A stretch of 54,562 bases of DNA, the filler included, from Sluysia triapertura (Eukaryota), in the NCBI GenBank assembly GCA_046118255.1. It is 4 parts of 4 records of this genome, joined end to end, with 100 filler letters (N's around TTAATTAATTAA, not from the genome) between each part and the next. Parts side by side here need not be neighbours in the genome. Positions count along the whole stretch, not along the records: positions 1 to 14,217 come from JBJNIA010003003.1; 3 more parts are not named here. The stretch is one strand, 5' to 3'. Positions 1-51,000 of this stretch are shown here, piece by piece. Below the pieces are notes generated by a model that saw only the letters and a list, made by a program, of their open reading frames with translations, did not search any database and was not told the origin of the DNA. The position numbers and the translations under genes were made by a program. Within the stretch, counting starts at the first letter, position 1, and each line of letters starts with the position of its first letter.

Positions 1-44
1 ATATATTACATCTTAGTACATTAATTTATTTTATTACCTTAATA

Positions 45-93
45 CAGTGGTGTCAATGTGCGGCCCGTAAAGCAAAAAGGTTTGACACCACTG
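45..93. mobile_element. Minimal (49-bp) internally deleted hAT-type non-autonomous element
   Basis: Perfect 12-bp TIR CAGTGGTGTCAA...TTGACACCACTG with an internal GCGGCCCG typical of Charlie/Buster-like hAT ends. The 8-bp flanks CCTTAATA and ATTTAAAT both have a central TA but are not identical. Confidence 0.6.
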
Positions 94-1309: not shown

Positions 1310-1700
1310 TATTAATATCTAAAATAAGTACTAAATATTGCTTTAAAAATATGATTCATTAAAACATATTTGAAATATAAATATCTTTGTCTTAAATATT
1401 TCATAATAATCCAGTAATTTGACATTCTCTGGTAACTAATTGCATATTTTTAAAACATTACACTATATAAGATATACATTAATATACATTATTATACATT
1501 CTGTACAAACTGTTATAACTTAAAGTCATAGTTATTTTGGTTCCTCGTTTCTATTATTTCCGAAAGATATTGATTTTAAATTCTTGATTTTATTTATAAA
1601 TAGTGTAATTTTTTAAGATTAGGTGTTTCATAAATTATTTTTGTTGATTGATTCTCTAGTAATTGTAAATTCTCTATATAATGAGTACAATATACCATTA
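1310..1700 (-). mobile_element. Decayed 3' end of an L2-clade LINE
   Basis: 1402-1465 is near-identical to 43300-43363 (TTTGACATTCTCTGGTAACT). The minus strand reads TPNLKKLHYL*IKSRI and N*LPENVKLL, matching the L2 ORF2 C-terminal motifs TPxLxxLHWLxxxxRI and WNxLP. Confidence 0.55.
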
Positions 1701-2329
1701 CTATTGTTAGATTTTGTTATTGATATTTTATTTTAATAGCTGTTAGTTTACATCTCTTTACATTATTCTTTTCCACAAAGAGTAAACCTAACTTAAACGT
1801 ATAATCAGTATTCGGAGTCAGAGTCCTTATCCCTCTTGATCTTACAATGAAAGTGAAAATATAAAAACACAAATGATGAATCTTAAGGTTTATCATGTAC
1901 AAGAAATTATGCTCATTACAAAGTAATATTTCAACTTGCGCTTATTTTTACTAGAATTTTAATTTTAAATTAATCGATATTTTTCGTCGAATATAACACA
2001 GAATAAAATACCTTTCTAAGTTATAATGATTTATTTATGCTAATATTAATGTACGAAAAATTATAAACTAGTATGAGTGATGATGCATAATCATGAATAT
2101 CTATTACTCTTAGACCAATGATGCATTTACAATTATGCATAAATACGAAAACGAATTTGATGTTGCGGTTAATAATATTTACTTAGTTCATTATAAGACT
2201 AATAATTAAGTGTGAAAGTTTTAAAAGAATTAAAAATGGCAGCGATATCGTCTAATGTTGCAAGGCATGGTTTTCCATTATTACATTTTGCTAAATGTGT
2301 AGTTGATCTAAGGAAATGTTTCCATCTAT

Positions 2330-2620
2330 TAAAGATTTGTGGTGGACCAAACCAGAATTCATGAATTTGAGCTTAAAAATATCACCATACTTTACTTTCA
2401 TATAAATGTCCATAAACAAATATATACATCATCTTATCAAACGTTTTATAATTATACATATTACACCTTTTAAACCAGCTCATTGTACATATTCTCAACC
2501 TAGGACTTTCCAATTTGTACTAAAATGATCATAACTCCAACAGTAATCATGCAAATATCCAATCAAACCATTACGCAATTAATAAACCAAATACGTATAT
2601 ATTTTATTAACCCAAGCAAT
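2330..2620 (+). mobile_element. C/A-skewed remnant related to the L1/Tx1-like tracts at 7490, 36600 and 44480
   Basis: Starts with TGTGGTGG (2338-2345, reads CGG) like the other copies and is followed by the same strand-skewed composition. Heavily decayed. Confidence 0.35.
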
Positions 2621-2959
2621 TAATAGAAAAACCACTTTTCATCAGTAATTTAAGTTTACAAATAATAGTGCAAGTCTATAAAAATTCTCGAGAAAAGTTA
2701 TGCGAAATTGCTAGAATTATTACAATCTATTATATACAAAACATTAATGATATATAAAAGAATTTTAACTTATTATTTTATTTGGAATCTTTACTTTTAC
2801 GATACCATAATGTTAAACATTTATTAAGTTTGCTACTACAACACATATATTCTGAGTGAAAATATAGAAAATACTGAACAAGGTACAAAGTAAATAAAGT
2901 GTAATTCTAAACTGAAATTTATTCCACGTTTTATTTGAAAATACTATCAGTCTTTATCA

Positions 2960-3795
2960 GATAAATTGAAAGTTTTTGTTGTTCGTACTATAATGACAAT
3001 AATTATGTTAGCTGGATTTATATGGCTTCTTTATTTAGGACCGATAGTTTCAATTATATTAGTAATGTTAATTCAAATAAAGGTTTTCCAAGAAGTCATA
3101 AAAATCGGTTATAATATTTACCGTTACCATGGTTTGAAATTATTTCGTTCTTTGTCCTATTTTTTTCTGTTCACATCAAATTATTTCTTGTTCGGAGAAA
3201 GTCTCATTGGTCATTTTCGAATTTTATTGGCTAAAGAAGATTTTGTTACTCATCATCGTTTAAGTTCATTTAGTTTTTATTTAATTGGTTTCGTGATTTT
3301 CGTTTTGATATTGACTAACAAACATTATTTTAAGCAATTTGTATTGTTTGGATGGACCCATTTGCTGCTATTGATAATTGTTACGAGCAGTCATTTCTTA
3401 ATAAACTATATATTCTTGGGCATTATTTGGTTTCTACTACCGGTTCTGTTGATATGTTTCATGGATTACATTTTGGAAACGCCATTGGTCAGACTCCACT
3501 AATAAAGTTATGACCAAAAAAGGCAGGGGAAAGTTTCATTGATGCTGCTACATTAACAGTGATATTTTCCATCATTGTACCGTTGACTTTTTTCGTTTCA
3601 ATTACTTGGAATACCACGATATCTATGGAGTTTGCGAAATTCTGTGTTCAGAGAGCATACATTAGAATTACCAAACATTTTGAAAAGACTGTTGCCCATT
3701 ATTCATATCACCTATTATTCGTTTTTGAAGCTTAGTATTGTACTGTCAATATTCGCATCACTGGTTGCTCCATTCTCTGGATTCTTTTCTTATAA
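2960..3795 (+). pseudogene. CDS: Phosphatidate cytidylyltransferase (CDP-DAG synthase) pseudogene, intronless and truncated at both ends
   Basis: ORF 2966-3502 follows animal CDS1/2 (QIKVFQEVIKIGY, FRSLSYFFLFTSNYFLFGESL, QFVLFGWTH). A shifted frame at ~3487 reads GQTPLIKL*PKKAGESFI (canonical [20 protein letters not shown]). ORF 3632 gives LSIFASLVAPFSGFF. The catalytic PGHGGxxDRxD signature is absent. Confidence 0.9.
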
Positions 3796-4859
3796 TAATG
3801 TGAGTATTGTTATATATTTTTTGTTATATTTTATTATATAAATAAAGGTTCAAATTTTGTCATTTCATTAGACTCGTTATTAGGCCTATTTCATTAATAA
3901 AAAAATTTTGTATTTCATTAATTGTTTTAAAATTAAAGTTTGATGGTTTTTTGTTAACTAAATTCTTAAATTTTTTTAATACATATTCAATATAAATAAA
4001 AATAACCATAATTTATTAAAATTATATAGAACTAATTATAATTTATCAGAATTAAAATATTTAACGCCCTCCACATGTGTAATTTGTGGTTTTTCAAAAG
4101 GTGTTGTTTATCTTTAGCTTTAGATTTATTATTATTATTAAATTTATGGTCCTTAGGTTTTTTGTTATTTTGATTATTAACTTTTACAATTTTGTATAGA
4201 TATTTTGTATGTTCATTATTATTACAATTAGCAATATCGTCATTAACGTAATGAAAAGACATGGCAGTATAAATATGTTATTTACCTTTTTTAATTTTAA
4301 CTTCTGACACCAATTTGGTTTTAGGCATATTACAATTGTATCAAATGATTCTTCACTAATATCTATATTATAAAACAAATCATTAAAACAGTGCTTGAGG
4401 CACTTTATATTATAAGAATGTTTAAAATTAAAATTATGAACTTTGTTAAACTTATAAAACAAATAATAGAGAACATGTTTGTTACATTTGTTATTACAAC
4501 TAAAAATTGCTATTACAACCGATTTAAAAGCAAAAATTAATTAAATAATTAAATTAAATTAATTTTGTTGCTTTATAAATATCATTTCAAATTGTGGTAA
4601 CATGTTCATCCGAACATTCTGAAGTAGTTGTTCTCAGCATTGGTACATTTAAACAATGCAAAAAATTTTTCAATGATAAAATTTTTTAAATCTTGGCGTA
4701 AAACAAATATAATTATCATAAAATACTAATAACAATAAAAATAATAGTAATATATTCTTTGAAACGACATTGGATGAAACAAGTCTCTTTTAACCTAGAA
4801 GCCTTTTCTAGGTTATATAATTCAAGTGATTGATATATTTTACCAGCATTAAAATTTAA

Positions 4860-5955
4860 TTAATCAACGATTTCCTTCGATAATTTAGTCTGGCATGTGA
4901 TTATAATTTGATTTAAAGAATAAATTGATGAACTCAAATCGAATTCATTTAAGACAATAAATTCACGCGTGTCACACCATTTACAAAAAGTTTTAATGAT
5001 TCTAATGTAAATAATATAGCTGGCAAATTTAGTTTTGTTATTAGTTATTACAAAAGCAATCACATGACTTTTTAACAATTCTTCAGATGCTTCAGGTTTA
5101 TATTTTCCAGGGCCGATTTGGTAATTTTGACTTGGTCCAGGCATACTAACCAAATGAAAGTTATCAATTGATTACATATAATAAAACTTGGATCTTCGAA
5201 TGAATATATATATTTCGAATAACATACGTTTCGGTCTCTTTGACCTTTCCAATAATTTTGACCTAAGTCTATTAAAATTTTGCTGTGATACAAATCCATT
5301 AAACTTTGGACGACTTTCCGAGTTAAATCATGCATTAAATTAGGTATCATTTTCTTGAAAAGCTAACTGGCCATGTCAAGAACGATCCATAGTTTTCGTA
5401 ACAATGTTTCATAAGGATATATATGACGGATAATTTTCATGTAACGCTCAACATCTGTAAACATTAGACTTATATTATCCACTTATGACTTTTTAGTACG
5501 TAATAAACCAGATGGATGTGGTAATCCAAAATAATAACACTCAGTTGCGCGTACTAAATGATGATGCTGTTGTTGTTGTTGCTGCATAAGAAATTGATGA
5601 TAAAGAAATTCAGGTATCATTTTATTAAAATTTTCATAAATTTGGATATTTTTGGGTGCATGCGTTATATGTGTGGTATGTTGCTGTTTGTTGCTGTTAG
5701 TTAACGAAATTTCTTATTCTTAATTTCTTTTTTTGTAACTATGTAACTTTAGCGTTTCTAAACTGATACGATAAACTTAATTACCTCTTTGTTAGATCTG
5801 ATGATATCTTGTTCTAGTTGTTCAGTATTCCTATAATCAGCTCGCCGAATGTTATTGAATTCGACATCGTTAACAAGAATGTTAAAATTTGGTTTAGTTT
5901 TAATTGCTTTTCGGATAAATTTGTCTAAACAAAGTGAATTTAAATGGCTTAACAT
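4860..5955 (-). pseudogene. Decayed ~1.1-kb coding tract with polyQ/H and a SHIPPO/ODF3-like PGPxxY segment
   Basis: Chain of minus ORFs (5955-5758, 5350-5072, 5153-4860) linked by stops and frameshifts. Contains MQQQQQQHHH and PGPSQNYQIGPGKYKPE. GC is higher than the flanks. Confidence 0.45.
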
Positions 5956-6304
5956 TAGAATTCAATTTATTACATAGAATAGGTTTTAAAATTAGAAGTA
6001 TTTCGTGAAATTTTAAAGGTAGAACTACCAAGAAAAATAAAGTAGGTAAAATTTATCATACAAAATATAAAAATAGACAATTTTAAAGGCATAAAAACAG
6101 TAACTTTTAAAGACAAACGAACACGAAAAACATCGAGCTGGAATTGTTTGGCCGCAACCGCTCAGTGATCACCACCAACTCTTTCTGATGTTCCATTTTA
6201 TAAGGAGTTGAAACAGGATGTCGGGAGAATATATAACTGTTGGGGTAAAAAGGCCTAAAGTGCCATTTGGTAAAATTTACTATAATAAAATAAAATCGTT
6301 AGAC

Positions 6305-6376
6305 GGGCTGATAGCTCAGTGGTAGAGCATCGAACTGCGCAGGTAGAAGTGCCGGGTTCGATCTCCGGTCAGTTCA
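6305..6376 (+). tRNA. tRNA-like gene or pseudogene, probably Ala-derived, with an unpaired anticodon arm
   Basis: Acceptor GGGCTGA/TCAGTTC with G3:U70 and discriminator A, D arm GCTC-AGTGGTA-GAGC, T arm CCGGG-TTCGATC-TCCGG, followed by TTTT. The anticodon stem TCGAA/GGTAG does not pair. Confidence 0.75.
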
Positions 6377-7489
6377 TTTTACGAAGTCTAACATAACAAA
6401 AATTTTCAATTCTTGATTAATACTAGTTAAGGTGATGTGTTATTTAGTAAGTTTTAATGTTTTAAGGTAGTTTCAATTTAAAAATTGAAACATAAAATAC
6501 AGGTAAAATAAATTTAAGGAAATCTCACAACCCCGATCTGATGAAGGGAACGTTATAAATCAAATTTATATATATTACAAGAATCAAAGATTCTCAGAGT
6601 TTTGATACTATAATTTAGAAGTGTTTTTGTAGCTTACTTTAATAATTGAATTTTTGTTAACTTATTAATTTAATTAATATATATTCATCTGTTCTCTTAT
6701 TTTAATTATATTGGAACGATTGATTAACAAGCATTGGAAGAGACCCTCTAATGTAATTAGTAGATCAAGCTTTTAACATTAGAATTAACTTACATTAGTT
6801 ACAGAGACGCCATCTTTACGACATAAGACGTTTAATGTAACCGGACCCTGCTCAGTTTTATTTTGCCGTAGGTTAAGAGTTAAGAAAACCACAGCAGCTC
6901 ACCGCCAACTTTAGTTCCAAAACTTCTAACCCACTGAAATATTGCCCTATAATCATTTTTTAAATCTTGCATAAGTCTGCAACCATTTCACAGACATTTG
7001 TATAAATCTTTTCACTAAATCTTTATTAATTAATTATAAATTTTTACGAGATTGATTTTTTGTTAGCCATGTTTTGCTATTACTTAGTACAAAAAATATA
7101 AATTTTTACTATCTATTATTCAGGAATAATTTTAGGAAAAACTATTTTTTTGAATTTTGTAAAGTGTTCCAATGTTAAATTATTTCGAAGAAATTTATTG
7201 AAAAATTATAGCAAAAATAAAAAGTATTATTTGAATTTATTATTTTAAATTTCCAATACATCAAACATAAAAGTAAAAAATATTTAAAAGTAGGCAAAAG
7301 CCATAAATTTACAAAAGTTCGTAAAAGCTTAATATACAAAGCATTTATTTCTTACTTTTTAGGTAAATGACAACTTGTAAAAATACATTAAATGATTTGA
7401 TAATAGATCATCGAAGTTTAAATATCAGTTTTATCAATTTTAGTATATTTGTTTTAAGAAAAATGTTTAATGTTACCTTTATATTAATT

Positions 7490-8345
7490 ATGTTGTTGTG
7501 GTGGCCAACGCATTACTTTAAATATTTTATTTCATCAAGACACAACAAAATAATTTTTTAGAACATTTTATAATTCTTAATATCTTCCAACATTCTAAAC
7601 ACAAAATTTCATAACATCAAAATCATATTCAACATGGAAAGTCATCAAAAAATACACTTTAAAAATTAATATATCACACACAAAACCACAAAACACTTTA
7701 CCTATTATACTATCAAAACCTTTTTTAAATTTTATTTCTTCAAACCCACTAGAACTATTCTTTTTTTGATACATCTTTAAGTTACAATTTTACGACACCA
7801 AAATAACTTCTATATTCAAAATCATTAACGCACATTAAATTTTATTTAAAACATTTTAACCCATAATTCGTAATATTGGAATTCACAATTACATCTCAAA
7901 TTATCATATATACACCTTAAATCAATCTAAAATATTTCAAGTTTACAATCCTTAACACTCAATCTCTAATATCACTGAAAAACATTAAATTATCGCTTTG
8001 AAACCATTTTCGACATTGCAATTAAAATAACATTCCTTTAACATTTTAGTTATCAATTATTTTCTTCAAACATTCTTTTATCAACTCATATCTTTGTAAT
8101 CACGGAACAAATCTCTTTCAAAGGAAATAAGAATTATAATCAATATTTCAAAAGCATTTAAAGAAAGAAAGGAAGTATGCACATAATCAAGAAAGAAAAG
8201 AACTAAAAACGATTTTATTTAAGGCATTAAGTTAAGAGAATTTTAGTTTATAATAAACCATTTTAAAGAAATTTATTATTTTGAGAAAAAAGATAATAAA
8301 AGAAAGATTGTATAAAATATTAACAAAAGAATTTATGTTTCTATT
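7490..8345 (+). mobile_element. Decayed L1/Tx1-like RT tract (leader of composite copy C)
   Basis: Nucleotide similarity to 44480-45065 (TGTGGTGGCCAAC..ATTACTTT; ATTTAAAACATTTTA; TCACAATT). Fragments read CCGGQRITLNILFHQD and ILSKPFLNFISSNP, resembling L1/Tx1 GRxIxDN and EPLxxxIRxN. Strong C/A skew. Confidence 0.45.
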
Positions 8346-8414
8346 TTGTTTTTATTATTACTAATATTATTTAATTATTATTCAATAATTTTAATTTTAA
8401 GTAATTTACATTTG

Positions 8415-8628
8415 TAACTGCCATCAATTGACAGTTTTAATTGAAATAAAACTGTTTCTATCCTATTTGTTGTCAATTACTGACAGTTATACAGGCAATC
8501 AATATATGAGATTATGTGAGTACACATGCTCGCAACTTCAATTATCTTTATACACCAATTGATTTGATGTCCAATCAAGTCTATTTATCTATTTTTATCT
8601 TACTAATTAGGATTGGACGTCCAATCAA
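8415..8628 (+). other. Double-hairpin module, copy C
   Basis: Imperfect IR 8415-8434/8470-8489 (TGACA/TGTCA core) followed by IR 8559-8576/8611-8628 (TCCAATC/GATTGGA), ending TTGG-ACGT-CCAAT (4-nt spacer; 3-4 nt in other copies). Confidence 0.7.
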
Positions 8629-8832
8629 CATGGAAAACATCAAATTAAAAATAGGCAATTTTTATTTTTAGTTACACAATTGTTAGCACTGATACAACAG
8701 AAAGTACGATATAATAATATTATTTAAAAGGTATTTCGTAAAAAAATTATTACCATTTAGTAACTCGTAAAATAATTGCGATGCTCACATTTCATAAACT
8801 GGTTATTTCAAAATAATTAAGGCATTCCAACA

Positions 8833-9960
8833 ATGTATTTTAATAAAATATTTAGTTCTTCATTATATGTGCTGTTCAAACATGTCAGTAGAAATATTGT
8901 ACTCGACTTTCAAATAAATGATGATTTAAAATTTAGTTATGTTAATTATTCCGTTAACGCCAAGCAAATAAAAGATGATGGATTCAAGGACGGATTTATA
9001 TATTTTATATTTTATGTATTTTATAATTTATGTATTTTTATATTTTTAAGAACAAAGTAATTATTCAATAAATAAACATAGTATGTCTCATGAATTACAC
9101 TTAGCACTAGTGAACGTTAAAAACTCTTTAAATGATAAAAATAATGAAATCTGTGTTAGTTTAGTGCCAGAACAAAACATTAGTATAAAAAGCCTACCCG
9201 CACCATTCTATATATCTCAATTAAGAGAAATATCTATGATGAATAAGAGCGATAAAAAATTATAATCATAATTCTAAATCAAGCCTATATGTTAAATTAC
9301 AAAATGACAAAGCAAGATGAAAGTATGGATAGATTAATAACAACAATAGAGGATCAAGTTACACTAATACCTATTAATGTATTCCTACCGTTCTACAGAT
9401 TAGTATATGTTAATTCATTTGTCATGACAAAGAAAGTACCATCGTTGAAGACAAATTTATCGAATGTGAATTCAAAAATTGGTCGTTTAAAGTCATCTTA
9501 TCGTTGTAGCAAACATCTATACATATGTCTATAAATTTATGTTAATGACAACAAACATTATAAGATGGCTCTCCGCCCGTGTGAAACCAAACCAACCGGT
9601 GAATGTTTTAAATGTGCTAGAAAATGTAGTTATTGCCATGGTTTCGATAAATTTAAAGATTTTGTCGGTCATCCTGCAGATCTCAATGGACACTAGGAGC
9701 GAATAAATAACCTCTTATCTAGTTCAGCAAGTTCATCTCAATATTCTCTGCAAATATGTTCATGCAAATATTCTCTGTCAATGCGGTGAACGTTCTCAAT
9801 TTCAATCGCGCTGTTTCTTCATTGGACCAAGTGACACAAGAAGACATAAAACGAAAGATATGAAAACTACAGGTGGCATGTTCAGGAAAATTTTAGACAA
9901 ATTAGAAGTTTTAATGTTACAATTTTGATAAGATTTAAATTAAGAGTTGGTTCACCAAAG
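8833..9960 (+). pseudogene. Decayed mosaic coding tract including RSPH9 (radial spoke head 9)-like fragments and a Cys-rich segment
   Basis: MSHELHLALVNV, IKSLPAPFYISQ and ESMDRLITTIEDQVTLIPINVF..VYVNSF resemble recalled RSPH9 segments (MDADSLLLSLEL, ILGLVADYYIAQ, ETRLVSVIDQIDKAVAIIPRGAL..HVNRTF) in the right order. Downstream reads CFKCARKCSYCHG. Several stops. Confidence 0.5.
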
Positions 9961-10759
9961 ATATCACTACCAAGTGCCAATGGGCGACGTTAAGTATTTT
10001 TATCTAACATCATTATTAATTTTATTTGTAAATTATGTGCAGCTTTTTCAGCTACACTGAAATACAAATATCGGCGTTGGCAGTGACAACTTTATTGTCA
10101 AATTTTTCCAGTTTATCTTCTGTTGACATTGGCATAATAAAAATAATCCGATGACATTGTCAAACAAAATAACCATCAATTGGAAATTTATAAACTAATT
10201 TCTATTAATTCTAGAGAATAAGATTATAACTTAAAGTGCTTGAGATATTATGATTTCGTTGTTTTAAGGGTTAGTGTTGGACAGTAAGGATATAAAGATT
10301 GATGAAGTATTTTATGTGAGTTTAAAATAAGATTTTATGCGTGTATATAGTATTTATAATGTAGTATAATCGCAATAGATGGTTGAACTACCACACCTAA
10401 CCATAAACATTTAAACAGTTTGTTGTGTTTATCCGTTTACTATTATCCCTCTTTCATAACTAAAGAAAAATCAAATAAAACTAAATCTCGATATATTCTC
10501 GATATATAACACTTATACAAATCAAATCATTATATGACAAATATAATTCTATAAATCAACTTCTTTATATCACAGTTACAGTTATATAAACCAAACTTTT
10601 ATATAGTTAAAACACCTCTTTAAATCAAATTCTTTAATAATTATTGCCTAACTCTTTAAGAATCGCAGGGATTACACGACATAAATGTCTTTACCACAAA
10701 TAAAATATAAAATAATGATAAAAACAAAACGAATCCTAACTAACCACGTAAACTTATTT

Positions 10760-11520
10760 TGTCTCCATGTTATTGCTGAATAAAAAGACTCAATGAGTGT
10801 TACCCACCATGGAAGTATTCTCCGGACACCATTTTATGGCGCATATGTCTTTGGGGTTTAAAGTTGTTTTCAGTTTTAGACGTTAATACAAGTTAACTAT
10901 ATTGTTGTTCAAATAAGAAAATAATACACGTGTCAATACGTTCGTTTTGAATCAACTCATAAAAAAGTTTAACGTCTTAAAGATCGTTCTACTACTACAC
11001 TTTAAAAGAATTATATATAAAATTATATTGGGGTTCGTCAATGTTTTTCTTTTTATATTTGAATACTGAGTTTCTTTCAATTTATAATTTTTTAACAATT
11101 TGCTATGCTTCGTATCTTTAAGTATTAATTTCGCAAATCTAATTTTAAAATTATTAAAATATTTATCATCATTAGTTTCCATAAAACGTAACAAAATTAA
11201 TTTCTCGTTTACAAAGAACCAAAGGACTTCACGATTAGTACTATAAAAATTTATTAATAAAACATTTAATGTTATGAATTTCCTACAAAAATAAATTATA
11301 TTAATATTAAAGATTTTGTTTTCTGCCTTTATTTCTTTTGTAGACCTCTTTCGATACAGACAACACCGTTGGGCTTCACTGATCCGAATACTAAACATAT
11401 GAGCTAAAATAAAAGTCAACACATATATGAAATTAAAGCTTACACTAGTAGATTCGATTTTGGTAAAGATTTGATTAGCTAGCTCCAGAAATCCTCTGTC
11501 GATCAGTTTGTAGATATTAA
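10760..11520 (-). pseudogene. Truncated member of an unknown protein family, paralog of 34091-34927
   Basis: TFILAHMFSIRISEAQR..NDDKYFNNFKIRFAKLILK..KNYKLK aligns with TFILVYMFDSWISEEQQ..NDDNFFDNFETQFTKFILK..KKYKIK over about 150 aa. Confidence 0.7.
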
Positions 11521-11780
11521 AAAGTAAACATTTTTGTAAATAAAATTAAAAATTTGTTTAATTAAATATTTTTGTAAAGTAATTAATTAGTACAAAAGAT
11601 ATTGTTTAATAAAAACTTTTATCTACCAAAAAATTAGATTAGCGTTTTAGAAATAAAAAACTATTTTACTAAAAAATTAGATAATAAAACTTTTTAACCT
11701 ACATAATTATAATTATTTTATGCTTTGAATTGACTCTTAATTTTTATCAAACAGACATATACGTCAGCAAAAAATAAATT

Positions 11781-12588: not shown

Positions 12589-13721
12589 TTATAATTGTCC
12601 AGTTAAGTTTTTTAATAAAATCTGAACAAGCTCATTCTTTGATAAGCTGCTCAGTAACAATTTACTAAAATAGTGATATTGTTTGATTTCATATTGATCC
12701 CGATTTCTTTTGTAATAATCATTATACGAGTTAAATAATTGACTCTGGTTAAATTCGTGCTCGAAACATCTTAAATAGAATAATGCATTATTCTCCAATA
12801 CTGATTCATTACAAATATTATAGGAAAGGCATCGTTTTGATTCAACATTTCTAGTTCCAACCACATTAACTTTTAAATTACTAATTATAAATCGAATATT
12901 TTGCGTCTTGAGTAAATTGTCGTTACTTATATCGATACATCGTTGACATTTGGGAAGGACATCATTATCAACTCTAACAAAATATGTAACTTGAAAATGT
13001 GACATATAAATCAATTCTAAACCTAACATTCTCTAATGATAAATTCATATAACTGTCAACGATAGATTGTAGAAAGACAAGATCATCATATGATGGTTGT
13101 TCTTTGTTGATACAATTTATTCCTTGTTCGACTTTTTCGAGTTGCGACGTCGTTGGACAAACGATAAATGACAAATGGGTATTATACGCATAATAATTTA
13201 CTAGATTAAGAAATTGAATCGATTTGTATAATGTAACTAATAAATACGGATGACCAAAGTACATATCTTTATCATGAAAATAATTTGGATTTTGTAACAT
13301 AGTACTTATAAGATGAAAAGTATTCTGGACTGTTGTCGGTTCTTGCGTCGAAAATTCTGTCTTTAAAGATGGTTCTATTTGAATATGGTTAATCCGAAAA
13401 CTAAATTTGATAGGTTGTGGTTCATTATTTAACATAATTGAAGGTGTAAGCAACATAAATTGGCTTTTTCCAATATTTACTAAAGTAACTATTATTGTTG
13501 AATGTGGTAATTAGTTCATAATTAGTTATTATATTGGAACCACCGACAGTCGAATTAGGACATCCATTATTGATGGTGTTGATAAAATTATCATTGCTAT
13601 GATATGAAGATAAATGTGGTATGATTTTATTAAACATAGAGAAGGTCCGTGAAAATTTAGCATCTATCATTACTCTTAATTTTATATTTGAGTTATAATG
13701 TTTTTCTTTTGAAAGTTCCAC
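12589..13721 (-). pseudogene. Frameshifted ~370-codon unknown coding tract (cargo of copy A)
   Basis: Three overlapping minus ORFs in successive frames (13721-13425, 13456-12974, 13029-12589), starting ~100 bp after hairpin module A. No family recognised. Confidence 0.55.
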
Positions 13722-13826
13722 CGTTTTCGATTAATAAAATTTAATTGCATATAATAACAAAAACTCCTCTAATAAAAATTCAATTGAGAACAGTAATACA
13801 ATATTTTTAATTTTTAGAGCGTTGTT

Positions 13827-14002
13827 ATTGGTCATCCAATCGAGGCCTTTAAAAATTGATACATGTTAAATTAGGTCTCGATTGGATGAGATAGGTAAGA
13901 TTTTAATTACTAATTAATTTGAAGCCTAACTGATGACTGACCATCATTAGCGCTGACAGTCTAATGAGAAATGTAACATAGGCTGTCAACACTGGTAATG
14001 GT
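13827..14002 (-). other. Double-hairpin module, copy A
   Basis: 17-bp IR 13832-13848/13873-13889 (one G:T) and 24-bp IR 13940-13963/13979-14002. 13826-14217 is collinear with 35537-35921. Confidence 0.85.
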
Positions 14003-14217
14003 AGTAACCAGATTGATCGTCAATTATAAAATTTTATGAAATTTATTTTAATGTTTAACAGTAATAACAATAATAATAATAAAATTAATGACATTGTGGT
14101 TATTATTATTATTGTTATTGAAATAAAATGCATAAACCTTATCTTTAAAGACTTTACACGATCTGTTCTTTTAAATTCTTTAATTTCTCACATATATAAA
14201 GTAGAAAGAAGAGTAAA

Positions 14218-17476: not shown

Positions 17477-18544
17477 TTTATTTTTATTATTTTTACAATT
17501 TATTCAGACATGAAAAGCAGAAAAATTTTGTTTAGAATTATTTTTTGCCACAGATTAAATAATCTTTCTGTTTATTTATTTAGTCTTAGTATTGTACAAA
17601 AGATAATAATTTATATCTTTCTTTTTAATCCTTCTTTTAGAAAATTATTTTCAAAAAAAATAAAAATAAGCAAAAAAAATTCAAAAATAACTATGAATTA
17701 AATTTAATTTGTAATAATTATTATAATTTATAATTTATTATAAATTTAAATCAAATTTAAAATAAATATCGTAATTATTTATTTAATTTTTTAAATTAAT
17801 TCAAACTTTTTATCCACTAAGCTCACTTAATAATTGTTAATATTATTTACTTATTTTTATTTATTAATTAAATTAATATTATTATTTTTTTCAATTGTTA
17901 ACAAGCTTAATTTCGGAATAGTGTGATTATTTAAATAAAATAAAAAATGAGTACATTTAGCTTCTTAATTATTCAATTCAACCCCAAAATATAATTATCA
18001 TAAACAAATTTTTAAACAAACGTCAATTCAAACTAACACAATTATTAAAAATCATCAAATAACGCACAAAAACAGGGAACACGAATAACACAACGGAACT
18101 CAAGATTCAACAAATTTTCAAAACAAACATAATACTTACATTAACAATTAGACACAACTACAATCTAAAATTTAATATTGTTATTATAATGTAAAACAAT
18201 AATATGTTGTCTTACAATTCTTCTATTATTACATTCATTATAATTGCTTCTTTCCATTAATTTTTTATTTTTATCATTTATCGGCATAAATACATTATAT
18301 TCATTATGCTATACTATTTTCTCTACCTTCATCTATAATTATTTATTTAAAAGCAGAAATATCTTTAATCGAAAGTTTAACTGTAGTAAAATATTTTTCA
18401 TGTATTTTCTACGTATATAAAATAAGACTGTAAAACGTATTAATAGTAACACGATAATTCATTATTTGCTATTACAATCATATCTGAATAAAAATAAATT
18501 TTAATCGAATATTAAATGAATACTGATTCAATGTTGGTATAATA

Positions 18545-19100
18545 ATAATATATTAATTTATAATGCGCTCATATCTACTACAAAGTAAGTACTCAAAAGC
18601 GCTTAAAATAAATCACTTAAAGAAAGAACTTTGCTTTTTTCTTAAATATTTCATATTCATCCTGTAATATGATTATTATTATTATTATGTCTCAATGAAA
18701 TTTTCATCTTGGTTTCCAAATTTTTTATTATTTCTAAGTTATAATAAATAAATTATTGTCATAATTGTGAATTCTATTCTTGCTTTTATTGACAACCACT
18801 GTAATTCCTTAAGATAAGGTGTTACCTGGGATCTGCTTGATTAATTATTAATTGTAATTTTTTACTTTCTATAAGAAATTGAGCAAAATAAATCATTGTT
18901 AAAATCTATGTTGTTAGTTATCAATGAATGAACAATAAGTTTAGCTGTTTCTTTATTAATAAATTTTTGAATGTGTGATAATATTTTATTTAACAATATA
19001 ATTAATGTTTTCTTCCATGTTCATTTATGAATCCATATAATTTACATTTATTATTTAAAATGACTAAATCTGATCTAACGATTATGCATAGTGTGTTTAC
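18545..19100 (-). mobile_element. 5'-truncated L2-clade LINE remnant
   Basis: Minus strand reads KFINKETAKLIVHSLITNNIDFNNDL..KLQLIINQA..VTPYLKELQWLSIKARIEFTIMTIIY (L2 consensus AKxLVHALxxSRLDYCNSL..KLQxxQNxAAR..ITPxLxxLHWLPxxxRIxFK). It shares its 3' end with 43195-43520 and ends in a TTA/ATT tail. Confidence 0.8.
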
Positions 19101-21359: not shown

Positions 21360-23483
21360 GATAAACATTCTGTATGTAAATAGTTTTTACACTTATTTTA
21401 GAAAATTTATCTTTAAAAAATCTTATAAAAATCTGTCAATCTTTTTTTCTTTATATAGAGCTACTTTTTCAAAAACTAAACAAATCTTTATTCGAAGAAA
21501 ATCAATAATGTAACTATGGATATTGTGACTATGGATTTTTTAAAATGAAATTTTGACCAATAGACTTGAAAAGAAGAAGGTGACACTGGAAATATTTCCA
21601 GACAGAAAAGATTTCATAAATTTATTTTGTGTTATTAAATTTTAATACATAACGGTAAAGAGAAAACAATTTCTAATTAGATGAAGAAAATCATTATTTT
21701 TCTTGAAATGAATTTCATTTTATAAATATTAATTGGATTTAATAAAGCATTATAATTATCATTATTATTATTATTATTACATTTATTATAAATATCATTA
21801 TTGTTGTAAAAATGCATAAAGTGGTGGTTTATGCAATATGTGTAATGTATGTAATGTGAAAGTTTGTTCTCTCCGTTGAGTTCTTTTAGTCGTATATACA
21901 CTAATTATTTAATATTAATTCACTTAATTTATCCGAAGTTTTACTCAATTTAAAATATTTATCTTTAATGTCATGAGTCCTACAAGTCTTAGTTGCTCGA
22001 GATGGAAGTGTTTATTTTTCTTATAATTTTGATGAAAAATATCAATTACTTATTTCTGGGTTATTTTGTGGAAAATAGTATAATAACTTAAATAAAATAA
22101 TAACTGTGAATATTAACATACCAATTTCATTCAGATTATAAGCAGCAAATTTCTTGCTACCCTTGCTGCAGAAACTATTAAGTTGTATGGATGATTAATT
22201 AAAATTAGATAATCACACATCTGTAGTTATAGTTACAGGCATGTCTACTGTAACCGAACTATCCTAAAATTTATTTTATCGTTTGTTAAAAATAAGAATA
22301 ACAAAAATGGTTATACTTATGATTGTTATTGCTATTAATTATATGTAATTAATTAATTGTATAATTATTATATCTACTGTTTGTTCAAGGATCAATATTA
22401 TCAGTATGTTTAATTTTTTATCGCTTTTTGTCACTAATTGTTTACATGGATTTTGTGTGTTTCATCATAACTATGTGAAATTATAAATTTATAATTTATA
22501 ATTGATAATAATAATGTAAAGAAATAATTTTAACATTTAATTAATAATTTTAATTTAAAATAAATATTTAATGAAATAAATTTTTAAATAAATTACTCAA
22601 AATCTAAAGACACATAACACTATCTACACGATTTTTTGTATACCTATTTGCATACCAGCTACGTATATTTAGATCTAGGATGAGTTGAAGGAAAATTATA
22701 CCGCTAAATAAATTTAACTATTACTGTACTAAAAGTCAAAACATGAATTGGGAAAAATGGTTAATCTTAGAAAATAATTTCAAATTAAAATGTTAAAATA
22801 GTGGTAAAGAATAAATCAAAAATACATTCAAAAGATAATAAAAAAAATAAGAAGGAAGAATAGAACTTAACATAGTTAATTAGTCAATAAAGGGGCTCCA
22901 GAATAAAAAACATTAATTAATAGTAGGACAGATGTTAAAGGGTATGTCAATTTACTATAGCATATATAACTATAATATAGAAAAATGACATAAATAAAGT
23001 GGATGAAAATATAGCCAGAACTATATTATCTGGAAAATTGACCACATAGAGGTAAAAATATATGTAATAATATTAAAATGTGTATAGCAAAATCGGCTCT
23101 GTGGTGAGATTAATTGTATAGAAAAAATGACCATGAAGCAATTATTATAGAATATAATGAAATAAAGTTTTGGCTATAATGTGTTATCCGTGAAAAAACA
23201 CTACAAAAGCCCACAAGCTAGAACAAGACATAATTCTAAATTTTGTTGACACTCTTGGCTGGATCTCGAGATTATTACAGGTTTATTGAAGAATCATTTG
23301 ATAATATTGATTGGACACGAAAATTGTAAAAAATTTATTGAAGATTAAATAAGTATGATGCCTGAATATTATATAAAATAAGTTTTTTTAAATTGATTAT
23401 TTATTTTAAGCATTATATGTGGTTTTAAGTCTTATTCCTTGCAAAACAAAATAGTCTAATAACTTTGTAACTATGAAATAGAT

Positions 23484-23910
23484 CAGGGTTGGCCAAACTC
23501 CTTGATAGTCCAAGCTATTTTTCAAAATTTGAAATTTTTAGCGAGCCGAAATTGATTACGTATTAAAAAAGTATGCAAAAAAATTCTAGATTACAAATTA
23601 TATCCATCCAAATTATATTCATCCAGAGCACAATATCAACTGTTCACTACAGTGAAAGTTTACAAATTCAAAATCGGTCTGGAGTCGATCGATTAGTGAC
23701 TTTTATGTCACGCCACTATTTGTATTCGTTCGTGCAGTTTTCCATGAGTTATATCATTCTTAACTTGGACGGAAATGAAATTTATTACAACGTTGCACTT
23801 AGTCTTTCATATTTGCTGAAGCATAATTACAATTTTTTAAAATATAATAAAATGAAAAGGAAACTCAGGTACATTTATCGAGAGTCACAAATAATACGAT
23901 TATTAAAATA
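23484..23910 (+). mobile_element. hAT-like non-autonomous element, one end only
   Basis: Begins CAGGGTTGGCCAAAC after AAATAGAT and contains GAGCCG/GAGTCACA subterminal-type motifs. No matching right TIR was found. Confidence 0.45.
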
Positions 23911-25299
23911 GAGACTGTTTACATTAAGTTTTAAAGTCATTTAATATTAGTCAAAGTATTATGAAGTTATTGATTATAGACAATTAGAAGTAAATATATT
24001 ACAAAGTCTATATTAGTCTTAAGTTTTCAAATAATTTTAAAGGGAGTAAGAGTCATTAAAAATAAATAATAAGTTTAGTTTAAAATAATTGGCGACAAGT
24101 TTTTCATTACACATTAATTTTAATGTAATAAACTTTCTCATTTTTAGTGTCTAGGGAGAAAGATAATTTAGTGCAAATGTTGCGACTTAAATCAAAATTA
24201 TTAACAAGAATTCAAAATTTATTTATTATTTTCAAATTAAAAACAAAAACTTAATACTATATTAACTACAAAAATCAAATATAAGAACAGGAATAAATTA
24301 ACTAAAAATGATTAAATCTTAAAATCAATATGTCTGTTTATTATTTATATGTTAATGATATGATAAAAAGGAAACCAGAGGTAACGCAACAATTAGCAAA
24401 ATTAAAATACAAATATCTATAAATATTAAAGTCGATAACAATTATATTGTTGTCTGGTCAAATATTTTTATTTTGACGTAATAACCAAAAACTATAAAAA
24501 TATAATTTGGGCAGAGAATCTGTCACAATTCTATTAAAATCAATATGCTGGGTGTTTTTCTTAACCAGAAAACCTAACCTACAGCAAAATAATTAATTAT
24601 TGTGAGTCCGTTTACAGTATACGACTTACCAATGGCGTACCTGTAAAAATTACGTGAAAGCAATTATCAAAATTAATCGTACAAAAAAGATGCTTATCCT
24701 TAACTTAACAATAATGGGTAAAAATCGTCATTTATGTCAATTAACAACAGATAACTTAAAAAACTAATTAACTAATTAAGACCAACGCTAGCTTAATAGA
24801 TATTTGAAATAAAATTAAGTGAATAATAATAATAGTATAAGAACGTGCTCTTTCTTTTATTTCTAAATTCTTTATTTGAAGATAATGACGTCGGATCTTC
24901 TTTGTTTATAATTCAATTGTGATTGCAAATGGCGTTATAATTTTTAATGATGGCGATTGCTTTATTTGTCACTGTCTTTATATACTCATAAAGATATTTT
25001 TTGAAATTGATACATTTAAATAAACTTCTTTCTAGAAATTTCTTTTTAGGTCTTTTAAAATTATAATAATAATAATTTTAATTTTAATAAAATTAAATTA
25101 ATAATTTTTTAAAATATGTAAATTTTAATAATTTTTATATTTTTTAAAATTCAAAAACGTAAAATACGAAATAGAAAAACTTTGTACACCTTTACAATAT
25201 TATTGCATAAAGACTCTTAAGTATTTCATAAGTATCAAATTGACTAGTAGCTTTGTAAAGTAATTACAAACTTATCAAGTTGCAGAAACTCCAACTATA

Positions 25300-25850
25300 A
25301 GTCATTTACTCTAACGGGATTCTGGCAAAAATATTTTGCCGTAGACTAAGTGTTAGAAAAATCACAGCATACCCTATACGGAAGAATTAATGAAAAGAAA
25401 TAATACAAAAAATAAAAATGACATTAACTTTGAAAATCAAAGATACAAAGAACAATTAAGAGGTTGTGTATTTCATGAAAGAATATCCCTAAAATCAACC
25501 ATAAAACGTATAAATTTCAAAATAGATCTAATGCATAATGCAGTATTAGAAAATGAAGATAGAATAATAATCGGAAGAACCATAATAGATAGAACAACAA
25601 ATAATAAAAATAATGGATCATTTGGTTTACAAATCTATGAGAGAACCATAATCACTTATCAAGAAAATGCAGATTCATTAATAACGGGAGGATGGAAAGA
25701 AGTAACAATGGAATGAAGAATGACTTTCCAGAAGTAAGTACATAACAATGAGAATTAAATCAACAATTAGTGGAAATTTCCAGAGGTACAATAATTGTGA
25801 TTGATTGAGTCATAAAGAAAGTGAAGTAGGTTTTCTCTAGTTGACAAATT
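25300..25850 (+). mobile_element. Possible decayed RTE-clade LINE 3' region
   Basis: HNAVLENEDRIIIGRTI..GGWKEVTME*R loosely resembles RTE GHVxRMxDxRIPK..WExxAxDRxxWR. Weak. Confidence 0.3.
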
Positions 25851-39349: not shown

Positions 39350-39800
39350 ATTAGTGGAGGTATTGCGAACGAAGTAATGCTTTCTTGTAATGAACTAGTA
39401 TATCCAATTATTGATTTAAATAGTGGGGTTGATTCTCCACACATACTAAGAGTCGAGTGTCATAATGAGACTGATATATCATGGTCAGTCGCCGGCCATC
39501 CATACATTATAGAACTACACGACTCATATGACACCAACATGTACATGTCTATAGTTTTTAAATTATGTTCAAAAGATGAATTATTCGATCATTTAAATTC
39601 GTGTGTTACATTCTTTGAGAAGCGCGCAGGAACTATCGTACGTGTTATAAGAACGCGACTCGAAACCGGAAAATACCCTGCCGGGTGACAGCAATAGTAT
39701 TCAAGTGATAGATCTTGGTTTAGTTATCAAAGTAGGCGACGAACAAGATTTAAGAGGAATTTGTGGTTTGTTCGGGTACTCGGTCCCAGAGATCTTATCT
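39350..39800 (+). pseudogene. PHKG: Phosphorylase kinase gamma (PhK-gamma) kinase-domain pseudogene fragment
   Basis: NETDISWSVAGHPYIIELHDSYDTNMYMSIVFKLCSKDELFDHLNSCVTFFEKRAGTIVR, then shifted frames RDSKPENTLPGDSNSIQVIDLGFSYQ and VGDEQDLRGICGLFGYSVPEILS. These match PhK-gamma VSGHPxIIxL..GELFDYLTxxVTLSEK..RDLKPENILL..DFGFS..LREVCGTPxYLAPEI. No introns. Confidence 0.85.
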
Positions 39801-41230
39801 GTTGGTTATTGTAATATTTTTTTGTTATTATCCTACACAACCTAAGTCAACTGAGATGTGTGACTACATTATAGATTATGATATATGTCGTACATACGAC
39901 CTTTTTAGTTTTGTTAGCGAATATAATCTCTTCATTTGTTATTATTTTTTGAATAATTTTAAAATTTCAATTTGTAATGTAAAATTTAATAATGATCACA
40001 ATTTCTCTAATGATTTTGAATTAGGTAAACGTCATAACTATAAGGACCTTAAGTCCAATTTTTCTAATATTGAATTTATAATTTTTAATTCTAAAATCAT
40101 TAATAATAATACAACTCGACCATCACATTGACCTCTAGTTATTTTTGAGTGTAATTTAATAAAAAAAACTTAAATAATTTTAAAATTAACAATAACTAAA
40201 TGAAATATTTCCATTTCTTACGACTTTCTTGACTTGACTTGGAGTTTGATAATCATCATATCGGTTTGATTTTTAATGACATTAAAACTCTATATTGTAG
40301 AAAAATATCATTACAGTTCGAATTTCACTAAACTGATACTATATTATATACTAGTAGTAGTCATCAGCCAATAAGAATCGGTAGAGTAATATAGAACGTT
40401 TGAGAAACTTCTCTTCTATTTTTAGTGATAAGTTTATAAAATGTTTCTTTTTTCATCTTTTTTAATCATGACAATTATACATTTCTGCTTAAGAAGATCA
40501 AGATGTAATAGAAACTTCCAGCTCCATTTTGCTTAATTTTATTTAAACAAAAAAATAATATTCTAATTTTATTATTATTTAAAATATTATTAATTTATTA
40601 TTGCGCTATTTTATTATAAAGTATAGGTTTACATAACATTTAGTTTTAATATTGATCTTTTGATATTTATTCATTTTATGACTAAATATCCAATTTGAAT
40701 ATGTGTATTTCGTTTTTCTATTTGCATTCGAAAACTACTTTTATCAAATATATTGAATCAAATTCAAATAATTATCAAAAGATTTCTGAATATTTTTTCA
40801 TCAAATAACTTCAAAATTTAGCTAATTTTTTCAATGTGTAATTTATATTTAGAAATTATTTTTTAGAATTATTTATTTATTTACTTAAGTTTTCAATTTT
40901 AACGAACTGAACTGAATTTATGATACAATTCAGAAATTAATCATTGCTTTTCTCGCTTTACATTAACATAGTACAATATTTATAAATAATTTGTGAATAA
41001 AAGTGAAAATATTTAATTAAAATATTTTATTTTTATTATGCTTTAAAGACTGCTTCAACGATATCTAATCTAAATTCAACAAACAAACAATTTAATCTAG
41101 AAGAATACTTCTAAATATGCTTATTTAAATTAAATGTTGAATAAATATATTTATATGTAGAACTTATATTGTGCTAACAAAAATATGAAAAATCTTATAA
41201 AATCCTTCTGAATAATTTTTTATACATTAA

Positions 41231-41525: not shown

Positions 41526-41757
41526 TTAACTAAAAATGGTGATCTTATAAAATTGATCTCATCTTAACAAATTACACTGGTTACCCATATCACAAATGCT
41601 TACGCTATTATTTTTCCAAGATAATAAAAAAAGTTGAATTTGATTGATGTACGACGTTTTTATTTTAGTTGTTGTTATTCCAAGTAAACTCAGAAAAATT
41701 TAAATTACACAGTGGCACACTAATTACATATGAATATGTTCTAAATTAACTATTAAC

Positions 41758-44242: not shown

Positions 44243-44479
44243 CTGGAATTATAATGAAAATGATTTTATTTAAAATGATTATTTATTTTATAACAATAAT
44301 AACAATAATTTGACTCTTGGGTTGTCATCACAACCCTTTTTAAAATTTAAAACAATACTTAAAAACAATTTACTGTACTAAATTAACCTCATTTTTCAAT
44401 AAAATAACTTATTTTCTAAAAAAGAAATTTCCTTACTAAAAATAGAAAAGAAGTTTCGAAAACATTCGATTTCCATTGG

Positions 44480-45065
44480 TTGATTGTGGTGGCCAACCTA
44501 TTACTTTTAACAAATTTTATTAAATTTTTTTCTTTTTAATACAACAAAAATCACATTCACCTTCAAAATCATATTTTAAAAACTCATTATAAACATTTTC
44601 ATACATATTTCAATACCAACATAACCAAAATCATACTTTTCAACATCACACAATTACCATTTAGAAGGTACCAAAACATAGGCTATAATTTATCATCTTC
44701 GCATCCATTAAACTACTCTCTTTTAAATATATTTGTAAATCACAACCTTTTAACATCCAAACATCACTTTCATTTAAAACATCAATGTATATTTAGAAAT
44801 TCACATAAAACATTCATATTATTTTAGAATACTTACATCATACAGCTAAAAACATTAAATAGCATTTAAAACATTTTACGCATTATCTTATAACATTAGA
44901 GTCACAATTACATCTTTAAATTTTATCGAAAATGCGTAACAGGAATTTCAAACTCTATAAGTTCACAATTCTTTAATTCACACAACTTCAAATATGTTTA
45001 GAAATAATGAAAGAATTAGAAAGAAAGTTTGTGATATAATTTTTGAAAGGATTTGTGCAGTTTAT
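44480..45065 (+). mobile_element. Decayed L1/Tx1-like RT tract (leader of copy D)
   Basis: TGTGGTGGCCAAC at 44485-44497, similarity to 7490-8000, and ends ERIRKKVCDIIFERICAVYN (about RIxxxxVCxPKxEGGLGVxN). Confidence 0.5.
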
Positions 45066-45141
45066 AATAATAATAGTGATAATAATTATGACATTATTAT
45101 TATTATTATTATCATTTTTATTTTTATTATTTTAGTAATTA

Positions 45142-45297
45142 CTACTAGCAATGGTGACACTATTGCTTACTATGTATAAATTCTTGTCACAATTGATAGC
45201 GGATTGCCTGTAAATCTTATTCATTTTTATGTTATTAATATCTGTCCAACCAGAGTGATTGTTTTCATTATTTTATACCTCTGGTTGGACAGCCAAT
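45142..45297 (+). other. Double-hairpin module, copy D
   Basis: IR 45142-45159/45185-45202 (GTGACA/TGTCAC core) and a perfect 14-bp IR CTGTCCAACCAGAG/CTCTGGTTGGACAG (45242-45255/45279-45292), then CCAAT. Confidence 0.8.
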
Positions 45298-49991: not shown

Positions 49992-50229
49992 TTTTTTCGT
50001 TTTACACTCATCAAATTTTTATTTTCAAAACTTTTTAATTCCATAATTTATAGGTGCATAACTTTTTCTCTTATCATGTTGGCAGATTACCTGCATACGA
50101 TGAATGATGACAAAGTATGTACTACTTATTGGCTTGACAGCCATTATGATTTTTATATGTAATTTTAATTAACATATTTATTATTGTCATTATTATTATC
50201 ACTATTAAAATATAATTGATTCTTTCTTT

Positions 50230-51000
50230 TTCTTCTTCCTTTTCTTGGGATAAACATTATATTGACATCAAAATTCAAACACTGCGGATGAAAATGGATA
50301 AATAAGATATTTTAAATAAGTTTATGAGTAAAGAATATTTTCGTGGAAATAATTTATTGAAATTGAGAGGTTTGAAGGGTGTTTGAGTAAATAAGTCGTG
50401 GAAGGATTGATTTGAAAATATATAAGTGTCACAATGAAGTATGTGGGACAATCAAGATAATGAATTTATGTGGTAATTTGGTATGTTAAGAATTATTAGC
50501 CTTGTGGAATGATTACGCAATCTAGAATTGTCGAATTTATAAGATAAGTGAACGATTAGAAAATTTTTGAATCGAATATATATATACAAAATGGTCTAAC
50601 ATAAAATAATTGTTTTTTGATAATCTTGTTATTTATTTGTAAGGATGAAAATAATATTAAGCTATTATTGTTGTCAATGTTCAAAGATGAATATTTGAAA
50701 TTGCTGGAAATTGTTGTTGGTGAGTTGAGTTTTCTGAAAATATTAAGTGATTATTGTATTCTGTAATGGGTTTTATCAATTGTTGAAGGTCATTGTTGAT
50801 GGCATCGTATGATTTATTTAAAGATTGTATATTTGTGTTGGAAAGGTAGTTTGTGGAATTGAGCGGAGTCGTGATGACAAAATTATGAATTAGCAGTTGG
50901 GTCAGCACAATTTTCCCAAATAGATGAAAATCTATTTTTAAATATAATAAAATAAAAATTAAAGGCGGTTCCAATGATAGGTAGAAAATCAATTTTACTT
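50230..51000 (-). mobile_element. Decayed L1/Tx1-like RT tract (leader of copy E)
   Basis: IFYLSLEPPLIFILLYLKIDFHLFGKIVLTQ resembles LFxLxLEPLLxxI..I.G..L.G..V. Followed on the minus strand by AATAGTGATAATAATAATGACA, as in copy D (AATAGTGATAATAATTATGACA). Confidence 0.5.

Follow-up and report, generated by a model that had tools for sequence, protein, structure and literature searches.

Pack-MULEs and the derivatives of Aedes Muta1 share with the locus described here related inverted ends, subterminal motifs and heterogeneous internal DNA, which in those elements includes fragments of host genes (excerpts of PMC5225508 and PMC6431247). Unlike MULEs, however, the family of modules found here lacks similar TIRs of more than 100 bp, a TSD of 8-10 bp and subterminal repeats in tandem, and it differs from Pack-type elements by its long G-poor tracts and its fold-back arms of 15-33 bp. 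Ginger1 and Ginger2 have a 5'-TGTNR terminus (PMC2836005, in part), which fits the TGTGG/TGTAG end motif of the modules, but a TIR of 40-270 bp and a TSD of 4-5 bp are missing here and the scanned frames held no integrase. With Helentrons, DINE-1 and HINE the locus may have in common inverted subterminal words of 12-15 bp, an inverted repeat, a microsatellite and the capture of genes (PMC4067079, in excerpt). Missing from it are a short inverted repeat at a distance of 3-22 bp from the motif, the 3' stem-loop beyond the motif, T-rich termini, a TT target and, in the frames scanned, Rep/Hel; by inspection, the flanks of the end motifs differ and have no hairpin or run of T in common. The LTRs of Metaviridae and Belpaoviridae are comparable, when the modules are read in the anti-cargo orientation, for their TG...CA ends, an AATAAA and a downstream G/T-rich stretch (part of PMC3601003). 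Unlike LTR retrotransposons, TRIMs and LARDs included, the modules have no paired direct repeat, PBS, PPT or 4-6 bp TSD, their ORFs lie antisense, and CCAAT stands at the extreme 5' end. In promoter and enhancer modules of NF-Y and TALE proteins, CCAAT boxes adjoin TGACA(G) words (PMC6023610, in part), but the words here are inverted pairs within long self-complementary arms. No description of the module architecture was found in the literature searched, which comprised main texts outside repeat databases and most subscription papers.

The window, that is, the whole stretch of 54,562 nt of Sluysia triapertura DNA analysed here, has about 24% GC, seven runs of N and 16 ORFs of at least 100 aa; no intact host gene was recognised in it. 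The hairpins are real and recurrent, and they form the inner part of an end module of about 1 kb that belongs to an unclassified, mobile-element-like family (Table 1). Four full modules (copies A to D) and one reduced module (copy F) lie within 54.6 kb, in both orientations. Read toward the cargo, a long end starts with a TGT...CAAC motif and continues with a G-poor tract, a purine-rich patch, an AAT/ATT palindrome (H3), a TGACA..TGTCA pair (H2), a CCAAT..ATTGG pair (H1), N4, a further CCAAT and the ORF.

Table 1. Modules, ends and cargo in the window (positions along the whole stretch).
Feature	Position	Strand	Remarks
Copy C long end	7497..8625	+	end motif, followed by a G-poor tract of 660 nt and by H2-like pair 8429-8475, H1 8571-8616, third CCAAT
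Short end G	9950..10395	-	inverted relative to C, whose right end it may be; motif at 10395, G-poor tract of some 200 nt and three TGACA..TGTCA pairs
Short end H	10421..10760	+	25 nt from G, with a weak motif and a G-poor tract; may be the far end of A
Copy A distal orphan ORF	10952..11545	-	197 aa, 37% identical to that of B
Copy A proximal cargo	12589..13730	-	three overlapping frames of an orphan, broken ORF; no credible family
Copy A third CCAAT box, cargo-proximal	13827..13831	-	forms ATTGG-N4-CCAAT with the H1 3' arm, an alternative 5-bp mini-hairpin
Copy A H1 (CCAAT) inverted repeat	13832..13889	.	17 pairs, AT-rich spacer
Linker motif AAATCTTA(C/T)	13895..13903	-	weak, with 13 matches in the window; B has it at 35613 (minus), D at 45212 (plus)
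Copy A H2 (TGACA-N25-TGTCA), long imperfect inverted repeat	13930..14011	.	core 13940-14002, loop 13964-13978, basal extension
Copy A H3 AAT/ATT palindrome	14063..14119	.	perfect 20-bp, mirrored C/G variant
Copy A module, distal conserved part	14120..14217	.	83% to B; cut at the 14218 gap, G-poor tract and end motif of A missing
Copy B cargo	34091..35435	-	114-aa and 73-aa frames, then 297-aa orphan ORF
Copy B hairpin module	35538..35921	-	H1 35543-35599, H2 core 35649-35711, H3 35774-35815
Copy B G-poor tract	35925..36607	-	G 5%, C 23% toward cargo; starts with end motif 36607-36595
Short end E and broken chimeric gene	37543..39900	+	ends in a phosphorylase-kinase-gamma-like piece
Copy D long end	44485..45297	+	end motif, G-poor tract, H3, H2-like pair 45155-45189, perfect H1 45242-45292, third CCAAT
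Copy F, reduced	50128..50909	-	end motif and G-poor tract of about 610-660 nt, followed by no more than a TGTCA beside a CCAAT

Self-BLAST aligns copies A and B at 78% identity along 397 nt, which in A begin at 13826 and stop at the 14218 gap; both copies have the two hairpins. H1 contains a single G:T in A; in B it has 15 pairs, three of them G:T, followed by a T.T mismatch. The core of H2 has 24 pairs around a 15-nt loop in either copy, and of about nine further basal positions seven are Watson-Crick in A and five in B. The interval first annotated, 13827-14002, is too short, since H2 reaches from about 13930 to 14011 and both H3 and the A/B homology extend further right. H3 is perfect over 20 bp in A and over 12 bp in B and D, and is not evident in C. 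In folding, A and B beat 200 of 200 dinucleotide shuffles on both strands (z -4.9 to -7.0). A splice-donor-like GTAAGA follows H1 directly on the plus strand at 13895-13900 in A and at 35605-35610 in B, and is not kept in D.

The initial annotation had proposed that the structure is kept while the sequence changes. This is supported, mainly by copies D and C; between A and B alone, only two of 39 pairs change on both sides. Both double substitutions it had named are real, a C-G to T-A change at pair 2 of H1 and a G-C/C-G swap at pair 20 of H2. Altogether nine of the 39 pairs compared differ between A and B, two on both sides and seven on one, and two two-sided changes against 0.39 expected gives a P of about 0.06. 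The one-sided changes are all transitions (7/7), as against 32 of 56 changes outside the stems (p about 0.02); such changes keep wobble geometry, and they also fit an RNA. Identity between A and B is 87% and 83% in the stems, 93% in the loop and 74-89% in other segments, all near background. The loop, which had been described as conserved, matches at 14 of 15 positions against a background of about 0.80 over the 392-nt A/B homology (p 0.17) and is not kept in C or D; its conservation does not exceed that background significantly. The non-Watson-Crick pairs of H1 in A and B are all G:T on the plus strand, as had been stated. The C:A mismatch that A and B were said to share in H2 is indeed common to the two, but two further C:A in A and one A:C in B had been omitted.

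When all four full copies are compared, 6 of 14 pairs of H1 change on both sides, as do 11 of the 39 pairs of the whole alignment, a count reached in 6 of 500 shuffles. In the four-row alignment 77% of the cells pair, as compared with 24-45% in slid controls, and the covariation score of the whole structure, calculated for four related sequences with the structure taken from A, was reached by 2 of 500 shuffles. These numbers are support rather than proof, because the rows are related, copy A supplied the structure, and the alignment of H2 is poor for C and D. The covariation of the hairpin module is modest but real.

The related modules C and D occupy 8405-8634 and 45130-45306. The pattern ATTGG-N4-CCAAT, chosen post hoc and with one variant allowed, has four sites (A, B, C at 8612 and D at 45284) against a mean of 0.03 in 30 shuffles. 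Copy D changes the H1 core itself, to CCAAC/GTTGG, and its stem, which had been noted as different and perfectly paired, is indeed both, over 14 bp at 45242-45292. Of the nine positions flanking the H1 core, nine are Watson-Crick in D, eight in A, six in B and four in C, with differing letters, and the spacer of H1 is 82-89% AT. The outer 12 positions of H2 are paired at 7 (A), 10 (B), 9 (C) and 8 (D), and the inner six at 4, 5, 0 and 2, respectively. In A, B and D the symmetry reaches past the core words CCAAT and TGACA into their flanks. The spacer between TGACA and TGTCA measures 25 nt in A, B and D and 37 nt in C; the 25-nt spacing stays in D even though its inner spacer barely pairs (2/6). 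The G-poor tract of D is partly alignable to that of C (z 10). A search of the window with nhmmer and the four-copy alignment found no fifth full module, and copy F has no significant fold.

We consider it most likely that the hairpins act on DNA, as a symmetric promoter and protein-binding site, rather than as a structured RNA. The fixed words, the fixed spacing of H2, the variable loops and the want of a strand preference point to DNA, and the DNA alternative, a cruciform, a single-stranded DNA or a protein-binding palindrome, fits better given that the core words and the 25-nt spacing are fixed in A, B and D. The z-scores for RNA folding on the plus and minus strands are -6.2/-6.5 in A, -5.5/-4.7 in B, -3.5/-2.4 in C and -5.1/-3.5 in D; plus runs against the cargo of A and B and with the cargo of C and D. 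Hence A has no preference, B slightly prefers the anti-cargo strand, and C and D prefer the cargo-sense strand; DNA folding z-scores are nearly equal between strands in all four.

A structured RNA on the anti-cargo strand (plus in A and B) is an unlikely explanation. Such an RNA could be LTR-R-like, or a pri-miRNA or hairpin RNA made from a bidirectional CCAAT promoter and ending at the AATAAA and the GU-rich stretch, and the unit would then be the end of an LTR-like or other retroelement. Unique wobble positions on the plus strand number seven G:T against four A:C, B folds better on that strand by 15 kcal/mol, the stem of H2 is of pri-miRNA size with about 33 pairs, A and B share the AATAAA followed by a G/T-rich stretch, and the cargo is intronless. 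In the anti-cargo orientation TGTT stands at the start of A, C and D, and CA at the end of B, C and D, which may be compared with the LTR anatomy in PMC3601003 (in part). However, the wobble tally is not significant (binomial p 0.27), the opposite strand gives the better fold in C and D, the presumed seeds are not the same in A as in B, the arms of C and D are different again, the ORFs would be antisense, and an AATAAA is uninformative at 24% GC; there is no TSD, no second similar LTR and, by inspection, no primer-binding site or polypurine tract. The strand-specific RNA antisense to the cargo that was first proposed is accordingly not borne out, with this tally, z-scores inconsistent across copies and no Rfam score at threshold.

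The scan with Rfam covariance models that had been suggested gave no family at threshold for the modules. At the gathering level the whole window has one match only, the tRNA-like sequence at 6305-6376, and at the E-value level A and B have 8 and 10 matches, all far below threshold and to generic hairpins (best 33.8 bits against a threshold of 70). The tRNA-like sequence scores 37.7 bits, is not called by ARAGORN, and is possibly a pseudogene or the head of a SINE. The core of a hammerhead ribozyme consists of CUGAUGA, then stem II and GAAA. A hammerhead of the kind found in Penelope pLTRs, retrozymes and Terminons was considered for the CTGATGA in A and B, but by inspection no stem II closes before GAAA, and there is no Rfam match. 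A pre-miRNA, for which a conserved mature sequence or seed and a variable loop are expected, was rejected as well, since A and B have unlike arms where the seeds would lie, and C and D depart further. Resemblances to a C/D-box snoRNA, a CRESS nonanucleotide, a tRNA primer-binding site and an integron attC were dropped because the other features are absent. A 29-nt degenerate pattern from A and B had no match in 185,579 prokaryotic genomes, and blastn of module B against phages and plasmids gave none.

Our leading explanation, which we hold tentatively, is that the module would be a palindromic promoter and binding site, acting at the DNA level, at one end of a non-autonomous, cargo-carrying element, with arms kept symmetric by selection or by arm-to-arm copying. 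The invariant words may be protein-binding sites, CCAAT for NF-Y and TGACA(G) for TALE homeodomain proteins, and together they would form a TATA-less promoter of the cargo, with germline or stem cells as a plausible place of activity. Co-occupancy by NF-Y and TALE at words of this kind is described for elements of the early zebrafish embryo (PMC6023610, in part), and NF-YB acts in male germ cells of flatworms (excerpt of PMC4909293). In sequence and position, the layout is that of a candidate promoter of this type, with CCAAT upstream of the coding start and TGACA(G) nearby; words of five bases are, nevertheless, weak evidence for particular factors. The symmetric arms would allow a hairpin or cruciform to extrude when the DNA is unwound, and their pairing might be maintained by selection, by template-switch copying from arm to arm, or by both. 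Template switching extends the identity between arms (PMC3820800, in part), and the mirrored variant in the microsatellite palindrome H3 of A is the outcome expected from arm-to-arm copying. For this reason covariation by itself is no proof of a functional fold. In palindromes, what looks like covariation can stem from symmetry at the DNA level or from arm-to-arm copying, which calls for caution in scans for RNA structure. The enzyme that mobilises the element would be supplied in trans.

The outer part of the module is defined by its end motif and base composition. The motif is 13-14 nt long and begins copies B, C, D and F; it starts with TGTGG or TGTAG in 5 of 6 cases, and with TGTGC in F. 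The G-poor tracts of the long ends measure 440-760 nt and contain 5-6% G and 18-23% C when read toward the cargo, and the distance from the end motif to the proximal CCAAT is 782-1129 nt. An unbiased scan found 22 G-poor tracts in the window, and all four of at least 400 nt start at an end motif and lead to CCAAT/TGACA words. The pattern of the end motif has 7 matches against 0.37 in shuffles, with the one at 29290 probably due to chance; inner segments picked by hand, 2063 nt in all, contain 19 TGACA/TGTCA words where 5.1 are expected, and the pairing TGACA..TGTCA as such is marginally enriched (7 against 3.3, P 0.04), and most of these motif statistics rest on patterns or segments picked after inspection of the data. 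Degenerate telomeric or tandem repeats were considered for the G-poor tracts and set aside, since nine tracts showed no periodicity. Copy A is predicted to run on past the gap at 14218 through a G-poor tract to a TGTGGTGG-type motif, 0.4-0.7 kb to the right.

Shorter G-poor tracts with related motifs lie at 10395 (minus), 10421, 37543 and 2338. The short end at 10395 faces copy C and has three TGACA..TGTCA pairs, which makes 7497-10395 a candidate element of 2.9 kb with asymmetric inverted ends. Its two end motifs are inverted and similar without being identical over 11 bp. The back-to-back ends G and H at 10393-10423 are exactly 25 nt apart (ACA-N25-TGT), as inside H2; those of B and E are 935 nt apart, so the 25-nt spacing may be chance. 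Further to the left of the cargo of B, 32700-33510 has more minus-strand G-poor tracts and a TGACA..TGTCA pair at 33410, possibly a degenerate end. The segments 29940-30175 and 50992-51233 are an inverted homologous pair (67%), each with a weak end-like motif and a short C-rich tract, and one member stands back-to-back with copy F.

Several observations argue against a mobile element, namely no TSD, no mobilising enzyme, minimal similarity of left and right ends, and a demonstrable ORF shared by A and B only. At five candidate boundaries no match of more than 6 nt was found, also with the ends shifted; old copies could have lost their TSD. Self-BLAST found no long inverted match between candidate ends, which share only the 13-14 nt and their base composition. 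No transposase, integrase, recombinase, Rep or RT was found in the frames scanned, which covered the window outside most of 1-7500, 21400-29650 and 41460-44480. The intronless cargo, furthermore, points to a step through RNA that a pure DNA transposon leaves unexplained.

The first ATG frame of at least 40 aa starts 100-207 nt past the proximal CCAAT in A to D, and the frames are broken. The distal ORFs of A and B are 37% identical in amino acids (E 2e-28) and about 63% in nucleotides, with a dN/dS of about 0.65, and are open over 197 and 297 codons; the noncoding module, at about 80%, is better conserved than this shared ORF. None of 888 candidates matched the distal ORF, a two-sequence profile had no match among 1.84 billion representatives, there was no Atlas match, and the AlphaFold model has a mean pLDDT of 37.5, too low for comparison of folds. 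Pfam gave only CDS, the kinase and weak noise on 24 ORFs and only the kinase on 24 read-through frames, and PHROGs had no match on 16 pieces. An assignment of the 160-aa ORF of A to Spore_GerAC_N (Atlas score 0.93) is not credible, with a recognition of 1808 below the mark of 2300. A similarity among the first ORFs of A to D seen by eye was dropped too, as only the distal pair of A and B stood out among 1717 segment pairs. Alternative stop codes failed to join the cargo into long frames, and a mitochondrial or recoded origin was therefore dropped.

Two relics of host genes, a CDP-diacylglycerol synthase (CDS) and the chimeric kinase, sit behind short ends; their far boundaries are undefined. 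The CDS relic at 2897-3790 is intronless and broken, and matches in one HSP over 894 nt (residues 62-375). Its best matches are parasitic flatworms, 10 of 10 among the matches listed at 51-56%, and the three named of four in a second search (both word-indexed). The AT-rich DNA is accordingly likely to be that of a flatworm. A short end-like motif and a G-poor tract lie upstream of the relic, within 2338-3841.

An explanation that we regard as equally unlikely as the RNA is that the module lies upstream of the genes of a host multigene family, lineage-specific and quick to evolve, which would owe its spread to segmental duplication and not to mobility of its own. In that case the inverted pairs of CCAAT and TGACA would be the functional part and the long arms a by-product of quasi-palindrome correction. 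The module is promoter-like in position, the ORFs of A and B have stayed open at 37% identity, neither a TSD nor, in the frames scanned, a transposase was found, and the perfect stems of H3 and of copy D agree with template switching. This does not account well for the sharp shared end motif 0.8-1.1 kb upstream, inverted at the far ends, nor for related ends that carry unrelated cargo, host-gene relics behind short ends and a window in which no intact host gene was recognised. If the modules are only the promoter of a decayed gene family, they are of local interest. If the family is mobile, it would be a dense, unclassified repeat family, with at least five long ends in 55 kb, that moves promoters and copies of host genes and would escape annotation based on homology.

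More doubtful is an origin of replication or nicking, belonging either to a rolling-circle element or to a linear replicon that has integrated, and Helentron-like or virus-like in kind. An initiator would bind three boxes, two flanking the AT-rich spacer and one adjacent; the alternative ATTGG-N4-CCAAT hairpin would serve as a switch, and the G-poor tracts would record the strand asymmetry of replication. The three-box geometry around a spacer of 82-89% AT, which presumably resembles a herpesvirus oriS, speaks for an origin, as does the composition of element C, where one and the same strand has a C-rich left end and a G-rich right end. Helentrons, moreover, have subterminal inverted repeats of 12-15 bp and capture genes (PMC4067079, in excerpt). 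On the other hand, the frames scanned gave no match to a Rep or helicase, and inspection found neither shared T-rich termini nor a 3' palindrome outside the motif; the loops vary from copy to copy, whereas nick sites would be conserved. The hairpins are set back by 0.6-1.1 kb from the end, and the skew reversal predicted on the cargo side of B was not seen.

The least probable of the readings considered would take the modules as ends of undescribed mobile gene cassettes of animals, 3-6 kb long with asymmetric TGT-type ends. Their identity would lie in strand composition (G-poor at 5') and fold-back geometry instead of in sequence, they would carry orphan ORFs and intronless copies of host genes, and the switchable three-box hairpin might be both an origin or recombination signal and a germline promoter. 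ACA-N25-TGT recurs inside H2 of A and D, and in B with one change, as well as between the abutted ends G and H; under this reading, the recurrence would make H2 a fused end-to-end junction.

The window holds a few other sequences of note. Cys-rich (CxxC) pieces without a family match lie in the cargo of copy C at 9535-9928. The broken frames at 28874-29368 resemble what we take to be a protein-primed family B polymerase of Polinton type, and Pfam, PHROGs and phage tblastn gave no support for a polymerase identity. A weak match to an Ets domain (E 0.01) was found at 23567-23911, and 41753-42064 (minus), without database support, is presumably a gene fragment with the start of a tensin-like SH2. 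An inverted duplication of 96% across an assembly gap (41227-41306 and 41453-41529), with a hairpin of G/C runs, is either a TIR pair or an assembly artefact. A separate family of short interspersed repeats, 73-87% identical, has members at 1321-1466, 18539-18782, 43185-43508 and 52285-52350.
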